From a virus (Duplodnaviria; Heunggongvirae; Uroviricota; Caudoviricetes): 12,103 bases of DNA. The notes below the pieces were generated by a model. The model did not search any database. It saw only the letters and a program-made list of their open reading frames with translations, and was not told the origin of the DNA. Positions 1,341 to 12,103 of the stretch are shown here, piece by piece; positions within the stretch are counted from its first letter, which is position 1; each line of letters opens with the position of its first letter. The DNA is taken from the IMG/VR virus record IMGVR_UViG_2617270939_000001; one strand, written 5' to 3'. The position numbers were made by a program, and so were the translations under genes.

Positions 1341-1916
1341 CTACGGCAGTGCTGGCCATTCAATATCCTGTGCAGTTGACGTATCAACACGGTTCAGCAA
1401 TACCCGATACTTTTTCCATGCTTCCAGCAACGAGATTTCTTCCTCCGTTGCAATTTCCAGATCTGCAGCATCCTGAAGCGGCGCAATATGCTCACTGGCT
1501 ACCTGCATCAGGCTGTTTTTTGTTTCTTCCGCCTCCCGGATCCGGAACAGTTTTTCTGCTTCCGTATCCTTCACCCAGGCTGTGCCGTTCCACTTCTGAT
1601 ATTCCCCTCCCGGCGATAACCAGGTAACATTTTCCGGTAACGGACCGAGTTCAGAAATAAATAACGCGTCGCCGGAAGCCACGTCATAAACCGTTTTACC
1701 CCGATGATCTTCAACGAGATGCCACGATGCCTCATCACTGTTGAAAACAGCCACGAAGCCTGCCGGAATATCTGGCGGTGCAATATCGGTACTGTTTGCT
1801 GGCAGACCTGTATGAGGCGGAATATATGCGTCACCTTCACCAATAAATTCATTAGTTCCGGCCAGCAGATTATAAATTTTTATGGTCCGTGGTTGTTCAC
1901 TCATTCTGAATGCCAT
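1341..1916 (-). CDS. tfa: Tail fibre assembly protein (Tfa), 191 aa
   Basis: Its start codon (1914-1916) shares one base with the stf stop (1916-1918), TAATG on the coding strand. Protein is TfaQ/TfaR-like. Convergent with pin, as in Rac and Qin. Confidence 0.85.
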
Positions 1917-3904
1917 TATGCAAGCCTCACAATATAGTTAAATGCGATGTTTTTGACGGTGTTTTCCGCGTTACCAGCAGCGTTAACGGTGATGGTATGT
2001 CCATGTGAACCAATCGCAACGGAGTGCGTATGAGCACCAATACCGACAGTATGTGCGTGTGCACCTGCGCTTGCAGCAGTACCCGATACAGAGTGCGTAT
2101 GAGCGCCTGCAGAAGAAGTGTTAACACTGTATTTAGAATAATCAGGTGATCCACTTCCCGGAGCACCACTGGAACCACCTGAAACAAATGTCATCGAATG
2201 GGTATGTGCACCGGCTGAAGCAGCCGTACCGCTAACACTATGGGTATGCGCACCAGTGTTATTCGTGGATTTAGTGCCGTAATCAAACGACGATGTGGTT
2301 TTCGTCCCCAAATCCGTACTGGATACGCTGGCGCTGTGGGTGTGTGATTTAATGCCGTCCTGTTCCTGAGACAATACGGCTCGATCACTGGCGGGCTTGC
2401 CCTTAATCGTCCAGCCACGCATATCAGGGATCACGCCTGACGGATAAGCGGCTGCAAGTTTCGGGTAAGCAGATTTGTCAAAAGTCTGCCCCTGCATCAG
2501 GGCATAACCAGACGGAACGGTATCTGATGGCCACGGGATTGGTGCGCCGACTGGATAAAACTCTGCAGGAGGATGAGCCGAGGTGTAAAGCTGCGCCCAC
2601 GGCGACCAGTTTGCGTCGGTCGTATCCCGTCGTGAACGAATAAATGCCGGAGCATGATCGCCGCTGGTTCCACTCCAGCCAATAAGTAACTCACCCTCTC
2701 CTACTGCGGTTACACCAGTGAGATGAAGCACATTACCATAGGTTGTTGGGTAGCCATTGTTGTATGCCTCATACATCTGAATGCCTGGTGTACCCTTTGC
2801 GCTCCCACTTAATGCCGTAACACGGTTTCTGGATACTAACGTATTAATATTTATATCGCTGGAACCATCAAATTTAACTCCATTTATATTTATCGCATTT
2901 TGTAACTTGGTTGCTGTCAATGCGTTACCGTTCAGACTTGCGGACAGTTTGGTTCCAATAACCAGTTCGCCGGTTGCGTTATCAATAGCAAACGGTCTTA
3001 ATGTATTCCAGCCACCATAAACATCACCTTGATTGGTAAGCAGCAGGTAAGTTTTAGCGCCATCATTACGCCATAATGCACCATACTCCCCACCTATCAT
3101 TCGAATCTGATTACCACCACGCGCTACAATTTCGTCTGTGGCAAAAAGTTTTTTGCACGACAAGTTATCGTTAACGATTAACGAATGAGACTCATAAAAA
3201 CCACGCCCACTCTTAAAATCAAGGATAACGTCCGCCGCGATACATTCAGTCGCCGGATTTGTTGCCCCAAACTTATAGGTCGTATCATTAACAACGAGAT
3301 CAGCACCAGGTGCGGATATTGACAGGCCATCTTCGATAAACGCAAAAACAGGGAAAGCAGCGCCATCAACATAGAACACAGAGCGCAAATCATCGCCCTT
3401 ATTACTCATCATTATTGAGTGGATGGCTCGTTCATTGTTTTGATATTGCCAGAACATTCCATAAGCATAACGCCCCCTGTCAGTCCAGCCACCAGGCATA
3501 ACAAATCCGTTAAACTCGCAGTTATTCATCGGATCGCCTGCGGTTCGCGTTGCCGTGGTGATAATGACCCTTGATGCCAGTTCGCTTACTGAGCCAGCAG
3601 AACGCATAACAGCAACAGGGTAATATTTTCCAGATGTTGCACCTGCAGGAGCGTTAACCCGCACATAACGCATACCACGCTTATCAGCAAAGTCTGTTTT
3701 ACTGACCGCGTTAATGTTGTTCAGGAAGCGTCCCTTATCGGGTATATCAGCGCCGTTCTGGTCTTTCTGCAGACGTTTCTCTGCATTGTCATAGGCTGCT
3801 TTTACTGCCTTTGGCGTTGCCGCCAGCGTTTCAGACGTGCTGTTGGTCGCACTGCTGAGCTGTACTATCCCCTTTTTCGTCGTGCTCGCATCCTCAAGCG
3901 CCAC
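1916..3904 (-). CDS. stf: Side tail fibre protein (Stf), C-terminal portion only; the frame is open up to about 4294 but has no ATG, and homology to lambda Stf begins about 4230
   Basis: Translation matches the lambda Stf middle and C-terminus ([35 protein letters not shown] … [14 protein letters not shown] … [31 protein letters not shown]). Upstream in the same frame (3905-4230) is the Ala/Ser/Thr-rich repeat typical of Stf. The 3904 start in the ORF track is a GTG (Val in SAVALED), not a true start. Confidence 0.8.
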
Positions 3905-4665
3905 GGCGGATGCAATATCCTCTGCCCGTTTTGCTGCTGTCTCGGCGCGCGTTGCCGCGGATTCCGCCGTACTTTTGCTCTGAGCTGCCGCCGTCGCACT
4001 GCCAGCTGCCTCTGTCGCCTTCGTGGATGCCGTCGTGGCGCTGCCCTTCGCTGCTGACGCCTGTCTGGTCGCCTCATCTTTTGAAGCAGACGCCGATGAT
4101 GCCGATGACGCCGCCGAACTGGCGGACGATGCCGCTGCCGTTTTTGAGGATTCTGCACGGGTTTCCGACGCTTTCGCGTTCGTTTCGGATGTCTTCGCTG
4201 CGGAAGCTGACCTCGCTGCTGCACTGGCCTGTTTTCCAGTTCCGGAAAACGCCGCTGCACCGACAGGGGGATCCCGTCGAGAATACTGGCAATTTCACCT
4301 GCGATCCGCGACAGCACGAAAGTACAGAATGCGGTTTCCACCACTTCAGCGGAGTCTCTGGCATTTTTCAGCTCCTGTGCGTCGGCCTGCGCACGCGTAA
4401 GTCGATGGCGTTCGTACTCAATAGTCCCTGGCTGGAGATCTGTCTCGCTGGCCCGCCGCAGTTCTTCAACTTCCCGGCGCAGCTTTTCGTTCTCAATTTC
4501 AGCATCCCTTTCGGCATACCATCTTATAACGGCGGCAGAGTCATAAAGCACCTCATTACCCTTGCCACCGCCTCGCAGAACGGGCATTCCCTGTTCCTGC
4601 CAGTTCTGAATGGTACGGATACTCGCACCGAAAATGTCAGCCAGCTGCTTTTTGTTGACTTCCAT
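3865..4665 (-). CDS. nohA: Terminase small subunit Nu1 homologue (NohA-like): 146 N-terminal codons are Nu1, then about 120 codons of out-of-frame stf DNA (deletion fusion, probably non-functional)
   Basis: First 146 aa ([29 protein letters not shown]…[12 protein letters not shown]) are nearly identical to lambda Nu1, including the wHTH. After codon 146 (about 4230) the protein becomes an Arg/Pro/Gln-rich tail, which is the Ala-rich stf repeat DNA read in the wrong frame. Confidence 0.8.
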
Positions 4666-4900
4666 TGTTCATTCCACGGCCAAAAACAGAGAAAGGAAAC
4701 GACAGAGGCCCAAAAGTTCGTTTTCAGCACCTGTCGTTTCCTTTCTTTTCAGGGGGTATTTTAAATAAAAACATTAAGTTACGACGAAGAAGAACGGAAA
4801 CGCCTTAAACCGGAAAATTTTCATAAATAGCGAAAACCCGCGAGGTCGCCGCCCCGTAACCTGTCGGATCGCCGGAAAGGACCCGCAAAATGATAATAAT
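4666..4900 (-). other. Intact lambda-type cohesive-end site: cosB (between Nu1 start and cosN), cosN (4843-4854), cosQ side (about 4855-4895)
   Basis: The minus strand reads …CCGACAGGTTACG|GGGCGGCGACCTCGCGGGTTTTCGCTATTTATGAAAATTTTCCGGTTTAAGGCG…, which is the lambda right end joined to the lambda left end with the 12-nt cohesive sequence GGGCGGCGACCT, directly upstream of the Nu1 start (ATG 4665-4663). Confidence 0.85.
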
Positions 4901-5053
4901 TATCATCTACATGTCACAACGTGCATCTACGCCATCAAACCACGTCAAATAATCAATTATGACGCAGGTATCGTATTAATTGATCTGCATCAACTTAACG
5001 TAAAAACAACTTCAGACAATACAAATCAGCGACACTGAATACGGGACAACCTC

Positions 5054-5287
5054 ATGTCAACGAAGAACAGAACCCGCAGAACAACAACCCGCAACATCCG
5101 CTTTCCTAACCAAATGATTGAACAAATTAACATCGCTCTTGAGCAAAAAGGGTCCGGGAATTTCTCAGCCTGGGTCATTGAAGCCTGCCGCCGGAGACTG
5201 TGCTCAGAAAAAAGAGTTTCTTCTGAAGCAAACAAAGAAAAGAGTGACATTACTGAATTGCTCAGAAAACAGGTCAGACCAGATTGA
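5054..5287 (+). CDS. Small basic protein, 77 aa, predicted ribbon-helix-helix DNA-binding fold (YnfO-like by position)
   Basis: Basic N-terminus (KNRTRRTTTRN), then a beta-strand-like IRFPNQ and two helices (MIEQINIALEQ / FSAWVIEACRRRL), resembling Arc/MetJ/CopG-type RHH proteins. Lies between cos and ydfO, where ynfO sits in K-12 Qin. Confidence 0.6.
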   Translation: MSTKNRTRRTTTRNIRFPNQMIEQINIALEQKGSGNFSAWVIEACRRRLCSEKRVSSEANKEKSDITELLRKQVRPD

Positions 5288-5344
5288 AGCAATTTAGATA
5301 ATCGTGCAGACTACGCCCCCTCATATCACATGGAAGGTTTATCT

Positions 5345-5755
5345 ATGGATCAGGTAGTCATTTTTAAACAAATATTTGATAAAGTTCGAAACGATTTAAA
5401 CTATCAATGGTTTTATTCTGAGCTAAAACGTCACAATGTCTCACATTACATTTACTATTTAGCCACAGAGAATGTTCATATTGTATTAAAAAATGATAAT
5501 ACAGTGTTATTAAAGGGCCTAAAAAACATTGTGTCTGTCAAATTTTCAAAGGATAGGCATCTTATAGAAACGACCTCTAATAAGCTGAAATCCAGAGAGA
5601 TCACATTTCAGGAATACAGAAGAAACCTTGCTAAAGCAGGAGTTTTTCGGTGGGTTACAAATATCCACGAACAAAAAAGATATTACTATACCTTTGATAA
5701 TTCATTACTATTTACTGAAAGCATCCAGAAAACTACACAGATCTTACCACGCTAA
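5345..5755 (+). CDS. ydfO: DUF1398-family prophage protein YdfO-like, 136 aa (the ORF track begins at an upstream ATG, 5330)
   Basis: A GGAAGG Shine-Dalgarno lies 7 nt before ATG 5345. Sequence and length agree with K-12 YdfO as I recall it. Confidence 0.7.
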
Positions 5756-5857
5756 ACCATAACGTCCGGCTTCTCTCACTCCTGAGCCGGACTGCATTGG
5801 TTTAATAAAAACCATCAACAATTGTGATTTAGATATTCGGAACCATTCAAATATAAC

Positions 5858-5880
5858 AAAACCCCGTAAAAACGAGGTTT
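5858..5880. terminator. Candidate bidirectional rho-independent terminator between ydfO (+) and gnsB (-)
   Basis: Imperfect hairpin AAACCcCG-taaaaa-CGaGGTTT with T-rich flanks on both strands. Stem has a mismatch. Confidence 0.35.
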
Positions 5881-5906
5881 ATGGATAAATTTTATTATTG
5901 AATACA

Positions 5907-6080
5907 TCAGATTAAATTAATCTTGACATCATAGCTTTCAAGACCCGTCATTTTTTCCCGTGCGGTAAACTGAATACTGGTAACTTCTTTCCCGGTCTTT
6001 TTCTTAAGTTCAATAATTTTTTTTGTTATATATTCAGAAATATCTGCTTCTGCTTTTGTTTTTAAGTTTTCAATATTCAT
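5907..6080 (-). CDS. gnsB: GnsB, 57 aa; absent from the ORF track because it is under 60 aa
   Basis: Manual reverse-complement translation gives MNIENLKTKAEADISEYITKKIIELKKKTGKEVTSIQFTAREKMTGLESYDVKINLI, stop TGA at 5907-5909. AAGAGGAAATG precedes the start (tandem ATGs at 6083 and 6080). Confidence 0.8.
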   Translation of the reverse strand: MNIENLKTKAEADISEYITKKIIELKKKTGKEVTSIQFTAREKMTGLESYDVKINLI

Positions 6081-6251
6081 CATTTCCTCTTTTAGTCTGT
6101 TATGACTTTCCAGTTACACAGTAAGTCGATTATATGGTGCAAACGTGTAAAAGATAAGATGAAACATCGCAATAATCAACATACGATAGTCTAAATTTTA
6201 CACAAACAGACAAAGAGAATTTTCCTGAATTATCAATGCAATAGCATCAAA

Positions 6252-6482
6252 TCAACTCAAGAGCCTTATTGCTGCTTCCAGAATTTCTTCTGAAGTAACA
6301 TGTCGATCCGCGGCTACATAAATGACTTTATGATCTCCGGTCAGAGATGGAAACCCTGCGGCCATTACAGTAAGGTGTGTTTTTTCGCCATTTGGATATT
6401 CACGCATGATGGTGTTAACTCCAGTCATCGCTGGCACTACCACTGCTGGTTCAGAGTTAAAAAAAACTATGATTTTTTTCAT
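6252..6482 (-). CDS. Small hypothetical protein, 76 aa from MKKIIVFF (track ORF extends to a further upstream ATG at 6524); at the position of the cold-shock-induced ynfN in Qin
   Basis: Clean ORF in the AT-rich cargo block, same strand as the flanking gnsB and cspI. Start is ambiguous and the SD is weak. I do not recognise the sequence with confidence. Confidence 0.5.
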   Translation of the reverse strand: MKKIIVFFNSEPAVVVPAMTGVNTIMREYPNGEKTHLTVMAAGFPSLTGDHKVIYVAADRHVTSEEILEAAIRLLS

Positions 6483-6523
6483 GATGTTACCGTAGTATGT
6501 GAGTATCCATCGAATAGACACCA

Positions 6524-6560
6524 AGCAAAAAAGCTCCCGAAGGAGCCTTCATTTTCACTT
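6524..6560. terminator. Candidate terminator/attenuator hairpin between cspI and the downstream small ORF
   Basis: GCTCC-cgaa-GGAGC, a 5-bp GC stem with a GNRA-like loop, flanked by an A run (6524-6532) and T-rich sequence (6551-6565). Stem is short. Confidence 0.3.
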
Positions 6561-6753
6561 TTTTAAATCCAACGACAGACGGCTGGCATTTAAGTATTGT
6601 GAAATATTATCAAATGTAATCATCATTGATTTACAAAAGATACATTTTGCCCCGAAAGGATTCATGTCAGAAACATCAAAAGATGATGTTCTATACTGGG
6701 AACCATGACAACACGGGCATCTAAAGTGAATATGGTTTGTAATATTGTCTACC

Positions 6754-6966
6754 TCAAAGCGCCACTACATGAACAGCGGCAGGACCTTTAGGTCCGTTCT
6801 CAATACCAAATTCAACTTCCTGATTCTCAGTTAATGTTTTGAAATCGTTGCTCTGAATTGCTGAGAAATGGACAAACACATCTTTGCTGCCATCTTTCGG
6901 CGTGATGAAACCAAAACCTTTTTCAGGGTTAAACCATTTCACTAAACCAGTCATTTTGTTAGACAT
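6754..6966 (-). CDS. cspI: Cold-shock protein CspI (CspA family), 70 aa
   Basis: [70 protein letters not shown] carries RNP1 (KGFGFI) and RNP2 (VFVHF). Confidence 0.9.
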
Positions 6967-7328: not shown

Positions 7329-8662
<1,334 letters not shown>

Positions 8663-8666
8663 TGGA

Positions 8667-8882
8667 TTATTCTCCTCTCGCAGCCTTACGCCTGTCTTCT
8701 TTAATCTTGAAATAAAGATTTGTCAGATACGTCAGCAGGCCAAAAACCAGGCTACCCAGCACACCGATTGCAGCCCACTGTGACGGAGTTACTTTATCGA
8801 GTAACTGCAATGCCCAGAAACCAGCATTACCCGCCGATGTGCCATAGGCAACACCTGTTGTTAACTTATCCATTGATTTCAT
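8667..8882 (-). CDS. essQ: Class II holin / pinholin, phage 21 S-like, 71 aa, with dual-start motif MKSM
   Basis: [71 protein letters not shown] has two TM segments and is very similar to S21 as I recall it. GGTGAGGAT SD before ATG 8882. The track ORF's 25-codon upstream extension is not supported. Confidence 0.85.
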
Positions 8883-9101
8883 ATCCTCACCCCGATGTAC
8901 ACGGATGGTGCAATATGTTTGAAAAGATCGGAGTCTACGGGGTAGTTTTGACAGCACACGTTGTTCTCAACGGCGCTAAAAAAACATACACATTAAAAAT
9001 GTGGGTAATTATTTTGAAAGAAAGTCATATATAAAATAATAATACGAGAAATGTTTTCATATTTAGTGTACTGTATACGGCCATTTATACAGGAAAAGCC
9101 T

Positions 9102-9272
9102 ATGTCAGAACGTAAAGACTCAAAATCACGCCGTAATTATCTCGTTAAATGTTCCTGCCCAAACTGCACCCAAGAGTCAGAACACAGTTTTTCAAGAGTA
9201 CAGAAAGGTGCCCTTTTGATCTGCCCTCATTGCAACAAAGTATTCCAGACAAATCTTAAAGCTGTAGCCTGA
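9102..9272 (+). CDS. Small zinc-ribbon protein, 56 aa, of the kind described as YnfQ/YmcF-type small proteins next to csp genes
   Basis: AGGAAAA SD before ATG 9102. Two CxxC pairs (CSCPNC … CPHC). Antisense to the late lysis operon. The upstream part of the track ORF (from 9051) lacks an SD. Confidence 0.6.
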   Translation: MSERKDSKSRRNYLVKCSCPNCTQESEHSFSRVQKGALLICPHCNKVFQTNLKAVA

Positions 9273-9327: not shown

Positions 9328-9354
9328 TAATAAAAAACCCGCCTGAGCGGGTTT
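9328..9354 (-). terminator. Rho-independent terminator acting on the minus strand (downstream of cspB)
   Basis: Perfect 8-bp stem AAACCCGC-ctga-GCGGGTTT (9335-9354), followed on the minus-strand transcript by a U run (plus-strand A run 9328-9337). Confidence 0.7.
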
Positions 9355-9635
9355 GAGATTGTGGTGCTTTTTGTGGGAGTCATCCACTTACGCACTTTGT
9401 TTTGCGATGCCAGCAGTTAGCTTCTGCTGTGAAACTATTCATGCAGCAAACCTGCACTTCACCACAATGGTTAGCATACTTTTCCTGATTAAGATTTTGC
9501 CAAATATGCTGGCCATTGTTTCATGTATTGGACCTCCTTACTTTTTATTAAAGAGATCCAATATTCACTACTCTGTCCGTATCTCTACTCAGGCATCAGC
9601 CTTCTTCGTTATCGTATACAGACGAGCGATGAATT

Positions 9636-9851
9636 TTAATCAGTAATGATGACATTTGCTGCTGCAGGACCTTTAGCACCACTCTCTATAGAGAAGGTAA
9701 CCTTTTGACCTTCAAATAAGGTTCGATAATTATCATTCTGAATCGCAGAAAAATGCACAAACACATCTTTACTACCATCAACAGGAGAAATAAAGCCGAA
9801 ACCTTTATCAGCGTTAAACCATTTTACTAAACCAGTCATTTTATTTGACAT
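9636..9851 (-). CDS. cspB: Cold-shock protein CspB (CspA family), 71 aa
   Basis: [67 protein letters not shown]… with RNP1 and RNP2 motifs. AAGGAA SD. Confidence 0.9.
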
Positions 9852-9993
9852 TCTACATTCCTTAACTTGAGCCTTTCGGCATAAATGGTTTGCATAACAG
9901 AAACGACTTCGTACTTAATTGGAGAGACTCAAAGAAGGAATAAGTGAATAACACCTGAAATGAGAACTGCTTTAGTAAACTACTTCGTATATC

Positions 9994-10047
9994 GTCTGTT
10001 CTTCAAACCGACGCAGTCATTAACTCATAGTTGAACATATGAAGCAA
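9994..10047 (-). promoter_or_regulatory. Predicted cspB promoter (-35 TTGCTT 10047-10042, 17-bp spacer, -10 GTTAAT 10024-10019) and cold box at the 5' UTR start (CGGTTTGAAGAACAGAC, about 10010-9994)
   Basis: Minus strand reads TTGCTT-n17-GTTAAT-gactgcgt-CGGTTTGAAGAACAGACGA…AAAGCAG, closely paralleling the cspA promoter and cold box as I recall them. Predicted 5' UTR about 159 nt (10010 to 9852). Confidence 0.55.
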
Positions 10048-10149: not shown

Positions 10150-10358
10150 CTGTCCCCTAAAATGACAGGAATTGTCAAAAACTTTGACTACAAAAGCAGC
10201 AAAGGTCTTATATTCCCATCCGATGGCGTATCGATGCCCAGCTTCACGTTTCAGCTCTCAATCTTCGAGATGCAGAAGAAATTACCACAGGATTACGCGT
10301 GGAATTTTGCCGGATAAATGGTTCGCATGGACCTTCAACTGCCAATGTTTATCCCGGG
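10150..10358 (+). pseudogene. cspF: cspF-like cold-shock gene remnant: start codon position is CTG, one frameshift, and no stop at the expected end
   Basis: TAAGGAG SD (10138-10144) sits 5 nt before CTG 10150, where ATG is expected. Frame 1 from ATG 10162 gives [22 protein letters not shown], then homology resumes in another frame (…[12 protein letters not shown]…[21 protein letters not shown]) after a one-base loss near 10227. That frame runs on through the terminator. Confidence 0.6.
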
Positions 10359-10395: not shown

Positions 10396-10430
10396 AAAAA
10401 CCCGCTTATAAGCGGGTTTTCTACTTTTTT
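10396..10430. terminator. Strong bidirectional rho-independent terminator; candidate tR' of the Q-dependent late transcript
   Basis: Perfect 9-bp stem AAACCCGCT-tata-AGCGGGTTT (10398-10419) with an A run before and a T run after, so U tracts follow the hairpin on both strands. About 110 nt downstream of the Q stop on the minus strand. Confidence 0.75.
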
Positions 10431-10526
10431 CTAAACGTCGGATACACAAAGCCCATCGTTGAGAAAATCTTATCCATGTTTTTTGAAAAATGCAAACATC
10501 ATGTCGCCATCTTCAGCAAAAATCAT

Positions 10527-11279
10527 TTATCTCGTCACCTTCCTCAATTGCGCTTCCGCGTATGCTTCTTCCTGCCAGCACTTTGTTACCAGTTTACCAA
10601 TGACGTCCGCATACCCCTTATACCACTGATAATCGGTCAGGTCTGGTACCAGCTTCTGGACATGACGTCGTGCCAGCGTGGTCGGTAAACGACTAAACCG
10701 GTTTCCATTACAACGCCCACAAATCTTATATACCGGTACGCCATGAAACCGGGTTCTTTTTTCATCCAGAACAATCCCTTTACCCTTACACCCCCTGCAC
10801 GCTGTGCTGACTTCGCCCTTACCATGGCAATGCTGACATAGTTCCTTCACCCATTCTTCCTTGATTACAGATTCCCCGCGTCTGTAGTGTTTCACCACTT
10901 CGCGCAATACATTATAAAATCCCGTACCTGAACAATGCTCACAGCGAGCCTTACTTGCCGCAGACCTGGAGTAATCAGCAAAGGCAAAATTCACAAGGTA
11001 AGGAATAATCTGTAACCGGATTTCTTCACTCAATTTGTTCAATGTCGGGTTATCCAGTGCCATCGCGTAATTTAGCAGGCCTTCAATCGCAAACTGAGGG
11101 TCCTGAACACCAACTTTTGCCAGAAATAAGGCCAACCCAAGTGGTGCTTTCGACTGCACCATCCCCTGCGCTGCCATTACATCCGTAATTGTTAAACAAC
11201 CGGTGCCTGTCGCTGGAGCGTCATCGCTCAATTTTGGAGATTTTGGGGAGTAATATTTTGGTAAGGCTTCAAGGTTCAT
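10527..11279 (-). CDS. quuQ: Late-gene antiterminator Q, 250 aa from [10 protein letters not shown] (the track ORF's 65-codon N-terminal extension overlaps the upstream gene and is rejected)
   Basis: GGAGAA SD before ATG 11279. Four Cys pairs ([30 protein letters not shown]), a zinc-binding pattern. Sequence and length agree with K-12 QuuQ/QuuD-type Q proteins as I recall them. Confidence 0.8.
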
Positions 11280-11836: not shown

Positions 11837-12103
11837 CTAGACACTTCCGAGCCGTTGATAATACTGGTTTTCATATTCTGTCGGTGACATCTGTTCGCTA
11901 GAACCATGCCGACGCTTACTGTTATAAAACATTTCGATGTAATCAAAAATATCACTGCGGGCTTCTTCCCGCGTTCCGTAGATCTTTTTCTTTATCCGTT
12001 CACGTTTCAACAACTGGAAAAAACTTTCTGCAACCGCATTATCATGGCAGTTACCGCGACGGCTCATGCTACCCTCCAGGCCGTGTGATTTCAGGAACGA
12101 CTG
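11800..12103 (-). mobile_element. IS3-family insertion sequence, right end and 3' part; approximate inner boundary 11800-11836
   Basis: Transposase 3' end at 11837. The terminal inverted repeat could not be identified because the other end is outside the window. Confidence 0.6.
11837..12103 (-). CDS. IS3-family transposase (OrfB, DDE/rve domain), C-terminal 88 codons; gene continues beyond the right edge
   Basis: Minus-strand frame is open from the window edge to TAG at 11837-11839 (…QSFLKSHGLEGSMSRRGNCHDNAVAESFF…SPTEYENQYYQRLGSV). SRRGNC.DNA is the hallmark around the catalytic Glu of IS3-family transposases. Confidence 0.8.
   Translation of the reverse strand, partial: QSFLKSHGLEGSMSRRGNCHDNAVAESFFQLLKRERIKKKIYGTREEARSDIFDYIEMFYNSKRRHGSSEQMSPTEYENQYYQRLGSV

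Follow-up and report, generated by a model that had tools for sequence, protein, structure and literature searches.

The ynfU gene of a Qin-type prophage encodes a predicted zinc-ribbon protein, lies antisense between Q and the holin gene and belongs to a family often linked to cold-shock genes

The stretch of DNA analysed here (12,103 nt, hereafter the window) is a Qin-type cryptic lambdoid prophage of Escherichia coli. In a strain with 99.9% identity to it, RefSeq annotates the genes in the order nohA, ynfO, ydfO, gnsB, ynfN, ynfR, ynfQ, cspI and rzpQ, continuing with rrrQ, ydfR, the holin gene (essD/essQ), ynfU, cspB, cspF, ydfT (quuQ) and ydfU. The gene quuQ, the promoter/terminator block that follows it, cspB and the holin gene essQ are all found on the minus strand, and the open reading frame of interest, ynfU, is on the plus strand (Table 1).

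Table 1. Position and supporting evidence of the features at the ynfU locus (coordinates of the window)
Feature	Coordinates	Strand	Evidence and remarks
essQ, P21-type holin (Pfam PF04971)	8667..8882	-	Divergent from ynfU, 219-bp gap
Alternative sigma-70-like site TTGAAA-N18-AATAAT	9014..9043	+	Scan; 10/12 matches; Escherichia version only
Promoter-like motif, conserved across the family	9046..9074	+	Alignments; predicted function
Shine-Dalgarno AGGA, 7 nt before ATG	9091..9094	+	Sequence, alignments
ynfU CDS, 56 codons + stop, small Cys4 zinc-ribbon protein (predicted fold)	9102..9272	+	ORF list, HMMs, RefSeq, publications, selection
GC-rich 8-bp hairpin between convergent ynfU and cspB	9335..9354		63 nt after the ynfU stop
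cspB, convergent partner of ynfU	9636..9851	-	cspA-type thermoregulator leader 9620-10012
cspF, third cassette gene, frameshifted	10150..10352	+	Open frame 10162-10317, 51 aa
Candidate late promoter and first terminator, directly downstream of Q	10397..10493	-	Predicted promoter assignment
quuQ/ydfT, Q antiterminator (PF03589)	10527..11279	-	

Further observations concern the remainder of the prophage. An ORF at 11837-12067 (-) encodes the C-terminal part of an IS3-family-like transposase and truncates ydfU (DUF968); judged from the sequence, an IS insertion (window 11837-12103) appears to end the prophage segment here. A match to the Rfam model IS009 (RF02111, 221 bits) at 1375-1573 (-) falls inside tfaQ, a tail-fibre-assembly coding sequence at 1341-1916 (-). 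The ORF at 3865-4665 (-) combines a terminase-small-subunit (nohA-like) N-terminus with an Arg/Pro-rich low-complexity tail, which extends into the beginning of a side-tail-fibre gene (1916-3904, -; 662 aa, GAHTHS repeats), and this junction resembles the scar of a deletion by which head and tail genes were lost. At 7823-8662 (-), ydfR (DUF1327) and the phage lysozyme gene rrrQ form a single 279-aa ORF; in a near-identical strain ydfR is annotated as frameshifted by RefSeq, and the lysozyme could still use its own ATG. In the window strain cspF is decaying, and ynfU and cspB are intact.

The original prediction described a 56-aa plus-strand protein with two CxxC pairs and a good Shine-Dalgarno sequence, and all of this was found at the locus. 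The ORF list gives an ATG...TGA frame whose product is MSERKDSKSRRNYLVKCSCPNCTQESEHSFSRVQKGALLICPHCNKVFQTNLKAVA, with CPNC as residues 19-22 and CPHC as residues 41-44, and the ribosome-binding site is well placed (Table 1). The ORF is ynfU (E. coli K-12 b4776; Pfam PF23499; NCBIfam NF038384), which was already annotated and named; that is, the prediction re-discovered a known gene. It matched PF23499 (YnfU) with 107.7 bits (E=2.5e-31, model positions 1-49 of 49, cut-off 27 bits) and NF038384 ('YnfU family zinc-binding protein') with 79.8 bits (positions 1-51 of 52, cut-off 36 bits). Using a 246-bp probe centred on the gene, we detected it in 1,650 of 5,426 complete E. coli genomes (~30%), K-12 strains included, where it is present as a single copy and annotated as ynfU in RefSeq. 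The window copy is 99.2% identical to the K-12 locus on the DNA level. Its product shares 96% identity with the commonest E. coli cluster of the protein; D6 and K53 of the window allele correspond to N in the P0001 cluster.

Comparative data show that the protein is encoded and maintained. Of 80 window ORFs with a length of 40 aa or more, only ynfU and Q contain the motif CxxC-N10-30-CxxC, which 200 shuffles yielded with a mean of 0.045 per window; its occurrence is thus not due to chance. The reading frame of ynfU is retained across 79 homologous loci, the two other frames being open in just 1-2 of them, and variable sites fall mostly on the third codon position (29, 27 and 46 for the three positions). 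Against the copies of Citrobacter, Raoultella, Klebsiella, Kluyvera and Atlantibacter, dN/dS was 0.04-0.11. YnfU is under strong purifying selection. We also considered a 73-aa reading from the ATG at 9051, which is unsupported because species differ by 1-3-nt indels between CAGGA and the ynfU ATG, upstream indels that are not multiples of three, and because RefSeq annotates the 56-aa form.

Translation of the ORF, for which ribosome profiling or a tagged fusion had been proposed as a check, is already on record. Weaver et al. (2019, mBio; bioRxiv 10.1101/511675) report that ynfU was found by ribosome profiling with initiation-complex inhibitors and that chromosomal YnfU-SPA was seen by immunoblot in stationary-phase LB cultures, with MG1655 as the untagged control. 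According to the same study, YnfU was the most abundant among their newly detected small proteins, carries a 'pair of zinc knuckles' (CPXC) and is encoded within Qin. PIRT-seq independently recovered the gene.

We then examined the region upstream of ynfU in 73 distinct homologous sequences, nearly all of which retain CAGGA. Their common pattern reads aGC(a/t)A, N17, TA(t/a/c)(g/t)GT, ~7-10 nt, CC.TT, (a)tCAGGA, 6-9 nt, ATG. In the window, the promoter-like part of it is composed of a -35-like GAGAAA (9046-9051), a 17-nt spacer and a -10-like TACTGT (9069-9074); in other genera aGC(a/t)A occupies the -35-like site and TAtgGT the -10-like site, with T1, A2, G5 and T6 invariant. The motif is a poor match to sigma-70. 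Judged from its conservation, it may act as a weak, non-canonical ynfU promoter that would give a leader of ~20 nt. An alternative sigma-70-like site lies further upstream (Table 1), and the region does not exceed shuffles in the number of such sites, which makes it weak evidence for a promoter at 9014-9043. An apparent TGTATA/TATACA hairpin precedes ynfU in E. coli. Across 42 species RNAalifold found 0 consensus RNA pairs upstream of ynfU, and shuffles folded as well as the E. coli leader did (z = -0.4), which led us to reject an RNA thermometer or other structured leader. A Zur-box-like half site, GAAATGTT at ~9047-9054, was noted by eye and set aside, since its second half is mismatched and it is not conserved in other genera. 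Downstream, the hairpin shared by the two convergent genes is followed by a strong U-run on the minus strand, where it terminates cspB, and by just UUUGAG on the plus strand, a weak signal for ynfU.

The two cysteine pairs are conserved in homologues, as the original prediction required of a genuine motif. In 25 close homologues, C17, C22 and C44 do not vary, and conservation reaches at least 90% at C19 and C41. In the YnfU alignments, which extend to 30%-identical relatives, P20, C22, S29, L39 and C44 are invariant, with C19, H28, C41, P42 and F48 conserved to at least 90%. The window protein thus shares with its family, whose HMMs it matched over full length, the signature CPxC - x3 - SEHS - ... 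- (L)ICPxC - x2 - F of a ~55-aa protein. When 1.84 billion representative proteins were searched in full with an HMM, only 44 matches were returned, 25 of them at E up to 1e-10. Such a small number led us to reject the idea that YnfU is part of a more distant family, and none of the 44 is an informative domain fusion, all being small proteins or obvious mis-called fusions. Distant relatives, 30-42% identical, retain CPxC...(S/A)EHS...RVxK...LICPxC..LF and are devoid of C17. Because C17 is lost in these relatives while both CPxC motifs are kept, C19, C22, C41 and C44 are the most likely predicted zinc ligands.

An AlphaFold model of YnfU, built on a broader alignment, reached a mean pLDDT of 75, with 81-86 in the core. 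Its order is beta, knuckle, beta, short helix, beta, knuckle, beta, and at this moderate model confidence strands 14-18, 25-29, 38-40 and 47-49 flank both CPxC motifs. Confidence is low at both ends (block mean pLDDT 50-55), for the basic residues 1-10 at the N-terminus as well as for residues 51-56 at the C-terminus. Structural neighbours of the model are zinc ribbons such as LysW, ZitP and L37Ae. The model therefore supports a Cys4 zinc-ribbon core with two CPxC knuckles, which is a generic fold class, and YnfU would be expected to bind zinc. Small zinc ribbons that bind ribosomes or RNA, such as the N-terminal knuckle of archaeal eL42/L44e, HVO_2753-like proteins and bL33, are similar to YnfU in size, in their two-knuckle Cys4 architecture and in their basic character. 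They were the top, non-significant sequence and fold neighbours; in a PDB profile search the match of the first YnfU knuckle to eL42/L44e was marginal (E ~0.01 over 17 residues). Structure and sequence searches pointed to no specific family. PADLOC gave no match, and PHROGs gave weak matches to families of unknown function, on which grounds a role of YnfU in a defence system was rejected.

All named YnfU homologues are from Enterobacteriaceae; a few loci are titled as other taxa and look like contaminated assemblies. To place the window copy in context, we compared 80 species-representative loci. A csp (cold-shock-domain) gene is located within 1 kb of ynfU in 56 of them: 22 have the exact Qin layout (ynfU> <cspB-like cspF-like>), 12 have ynfU> <cspB-like, eight have ynfU> cspF-like>, and the remainder show divergent or upstream csp arrangements. 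The other 24 are without csp within 1 kb. Given the handful of csp genes in a 5-Mb genome, chance adjacency would be well under 1%, where the 80 loci are to be read as related by descent rather than independent, with ~40 different flank clusters among them. Phage lysis genes are near ynfU in just ~11 loci. Examples from Klebsiella, Enterobacter, Lelliottia and Franconibacter are found amid ordinary metabolic genes, and the neighbours of a distant member are dinI, usp and ydhR genes. Thus, ynfU resides chiefly on the chromosomes of Enterobacteriaceae, frequently in a cassette with genes of the cspB/cspF type, and the mostly non-phage flanks together with the csp linkage indicate that the Qin copy is a chromosomal-type cassette riding in a phage.

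Within the cassette of the window, an unusually long gap of ~280 nt (9355-9635, -) separates the cspB stop from the terminator hairpin. In other genera the distance from ynfU to csp is as short as 75-190 nt, so the extra sequence is specific to Escherichia and Citrobacter.

Isolated phages carry the gene as well. HannyBb, Tritos, 2H10, PhiR63_1 and PhiR42_1 have the same ynfU segment. A Superficieibacter prophage has ynfU-cspB-cspF between a Q of a different family (DUF1133/Phage_antitermQ) and a 40%-identical holin, and in Klebsiella phage ST13-OXA48phi12.4 a ynfU with 57% identity, not accompanied by csp genes, lies in antisense orientation with a Q of 35% identity on one side and a LydA-type holin on the other. 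That is, a backward ynfU between Q and holin recurs in three lambdoid backgrounds that differ in Q or holin family. Phage PHB10 has the cassette near its integrase and far from the lysis genes. In HannyBb (locus 4750-6880), ~2 kb of extra DNA are found between cspF and Q. This DNA holds a second promoter/terminator block (window 10352-10584 matches 5012-5242 and 6799 onward) and was annotated by its depositors just as a string of ~30-aa ORFs; we considered a tRNA array or tandem repeats behind these tiny ORFs between Q and ynfU and found neither.

Late lambdoid transcription is expected to start at pR' and to meet tR' just downstream of Q. Directly after Q in the window, within 130 nt of its stop, we identified a candidate promoter (TTGCAT 10493-10488, N17, TAAGAT 10470-10465), followed by a hairpin (10420-10397; z = -3.75) and then UUUUUGUGCUUU; the block thus occupies the position expected of pR'/tR'. 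Stx2c-converting phages, mEp460, Ayreon and SfV share its 156 bp with ~82% conservation, and the annotations of the latter two place a terminator in it. The genes following on the same strand are those of lysis: essQ, which starts at 8882, and then the lysozyme and Rz genes rrrQ and rzpQ. In the gap between essQ and ynfU (8883-9101), a scan for a holin-specific promoter gave one weak minus-strand match, the total count being no higher than in shuffles.

On the minus strand, a path from the block to the holin runs through cspF (antisense), cspB (sense) with its terminator and finally ynfU (antisense), so that two minus-strand terminators lie between Q and the holin. The antisense position of ynfU between Q and the holin, as originally predicted, can therefore be read directly from the strands; that late transcripts take this path to the holin is suggested by the block. 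A collision of ynfU expression with late transcription is plausible.

The lysis genes themselves deserve a remark. By eye, the holin begins with MKSM, its Met codons three apart as in the dual start of the P21 pinholin, and the N-terminus of the lysozyme (7823-8356, -) has a hydrophobic Ala/Gly-rich stretch resembling a SAR signal anchor. These features suggest a lysis system of the pinholin/SAR-endolysin type.

Taken together, we think that ynfU is probably a self-contained, moron-type unit of the csp cassette which encodes a Cys4 zinc ribbon, and that its orientation is a by-product of insertion. Such a unit would bring a conserved promoter-like motif of its own, followed by a leader that is short and unstructured, and a Shine-Dalgarno sequence that is likewise conserved. 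In lambdoid phages, the variable region separating Q from the holin would house the cassette, or just ynfU, as a passenger ('moron'). In a lysogen, or in a cryptic prophage like Qin, transcription from the late promoter would terminate just after Q, and ynfU would be expressed from its own promoter. Upon induction, the terminators would no longer stop the polymerase, now modified by Q, which would traverse ynfU in the antisense direction before reaching the holin, and this read-through may silence ynfU at a time when it is no longer needed. The backward orientation of ynfU would follow most simply from the insertion of the cassette ynfU> <cspB cspF> and would not be a device. Judged from fold, basic tail and csp linkage, the most likely targets of YnfU would be RNA, ribosomes or another protein, in a physiological context related to csp.

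The stx genes and the tRNAs of Stx phages are lambdoid morons of the Q-to-S interval, and stx and most of the other morons there are co-oriented with late transcription and boosted by Q. Like them, ynfU is a self-contained and non-essential insert between Q/pR'/tR' and the lysis cassette that is present or absent among relatives: the Qin type, HannyBb, L042 and the Klebsiella phage have it in the Q-holin interval, and SfV has the Q-downstream block but other genes in this interval. As to a promoter and a terminator of its own, which a moron would be expected to have, ynfU shows a conserved promoter-like motif with a poor sigma-70 match and a hairpin with a weak plus-strand U-run. Unlike stx-type morons, ynfU is antisense, and Q read-through would be expected to repress it rather than to induce it. 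Expression from a cryptic prophage is a further trait in common with morons; here the source is the YnfU-SPA immunoblot of Weaver et al., not our own computation.

A different explanation is that YnfU is a cold-shock small protein, co-regulated with cspB/cspF and acting with them at low temperature. The original prediction had likened its position to that of reported small proteins next to cold-shock genes, and this likeness is only partly borne out. The linkage to csp stands, and it extends over convergent, tandem and divergent layouts. In addition, the window contains another Cys4 small protein gene next to csp, ynfQ (6555-6743, -; ATT start according to RefSeq). It is intact, encodes 62 aa with CPCC...CIFC, lies directly downstream of cspI on the same strand and belongs to the YmcF-like family PF23641, with the RefSeq name 'cold shock small protein YmcF'. 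YmcF and YnfQ, the neighbours of cspG and cspI, resemble YnfU in being small, restricted to Enterobacteriaceae, equipped with two CxxC pairs and adjacent to csp; cold induction, however, is carried by YmcF in name only, and the literature found to mention ynfU gave no low-temperature expression data for it.

Homology is where the likeness ends. BLASTP produced no alignment of YnfU to YmcF/YnfQ, hhalign gave a probability of 2.4%, and the Pfam scan listed no YmcF, on which basis common ancestry of the two was rejected. The mirror is positional and compositional and does not reflect a family relationship; YnfQ and YnfU, both Cys4 mini-proteins encoded beside csp genes of a single prophage, are unrelated. 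The arrangement differs too. In contrast to ynfQ, ynfU is not directly downstream of a csp gene on the same strand, but convergent with cspB at a distance of 364 nt, with the terminator hairpin between them and a promoter-like region of its own, and hence is not co-transcribed with it. Within the window, the Rfam cspA thermoregulator matched cspB and cspI, but not ynfU, and the leader of the latter appears short and unstructured. Furthermore, YnfU-SPA was already abundant in stationary-phase LB cultures in the published immunoblot, and 24 of the 80 species lack a csp neighbour. We therefore regard a cold-shock role as unlikely.

One locus favouring a cold link should be mentioned. In Lelliottia (locus 4507-5679), ynfU is located between a YnaE-family gene and a convergent csp gene, the three being flanked by liv transporter genes on one side and pgsA/uvrC on the other. 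Induction by cold shock has been reported for YnaE/YdfK. If the Lelliottia YnaE gene is cold-induced, it would be a second cold-linked neighbour of ynfU there.

Alternatively, the backward unit could work as DNA or RNA, acting by transcriptional interference (an 'excludon') against leaky late transcripts, with the protein being secondary. Such a device would protect the host of a lysogen from stray holin expression. It would fit that ynfU is the gene nearest to the holin and always antisense in the three lambdoid backgrounds, and that its gap to the holin start is ~200 bp in the Qin type and the Klebsiella phage alike. However, ynfU transcription heads away from the holin and overlaps only the late leader, not the holin mRNA, and two minus-strand terminators are already in place between Q and the holin. 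Most family members are outside prophages, the PHB10 cassette is far from the lysis genes, and the purifying selection acts on the protein. The recurrence itself could have arisen through lambdoid mosaicism spreading one ancestral insertion to varied Q and holin modules. We thus give this interpretation little chance.

YnfU might also be a factor that benefits the phage, for example in superinfection exclusion or anti-defence, with the chromosomal copies as prophage remnants. Its presence in isolated temperate phages and the tail-spike or Gp34 fragments near several 'chromosomal' loci agree with this idea, but PADLOC and PHROGs lend it no functional match, and many loci sit amid housekeeping genes with no phage genes within 4-6 kb; we judge it very improbable. 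That the ORF is a chance frame and no gene, for which nothing but its small size speaks, is practically refuted by the published tagging together with HMM scores, dN/dS, cysteine conservation and shuffles.

Beyond the literature, our comparison adds to what is known of ynfU its cassette with csp genes, its mostly chromosomal occurrence, a conserved promoter-like motif upstream of it and its repeated antisense position between Q and S. On the reading we prefer, that of a moron-type unit in a csp cassette, the locus is a natural case for studying what Q-modified polymerase does to an opposing gene. A bolder idea is that enterobacterial csp genes were repeatedly partnered with small Cys4 proteins of at least two unrelated families as Csp cofactors and that the trio is a phage-acquired mobile stress module. 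We consider this quite unlikely at present; if true, YnfU with cspB/cspF, and YmcF/YnfQ with cspG/cspI, would be partners of the Csp RNA chaperones, such as cofactors binding RNA or the ribosome, and the backward placement would limit ynfU expression to lysogeny or insulate the holin from leaky late transcription. The finding is unlikely to surprise a specialist, but its comparative context, including another small Cys4 protein, unrelated to YnfU and encoded next to cspI of this prophage, provides a concrete starting point for finding the function of YnfU.
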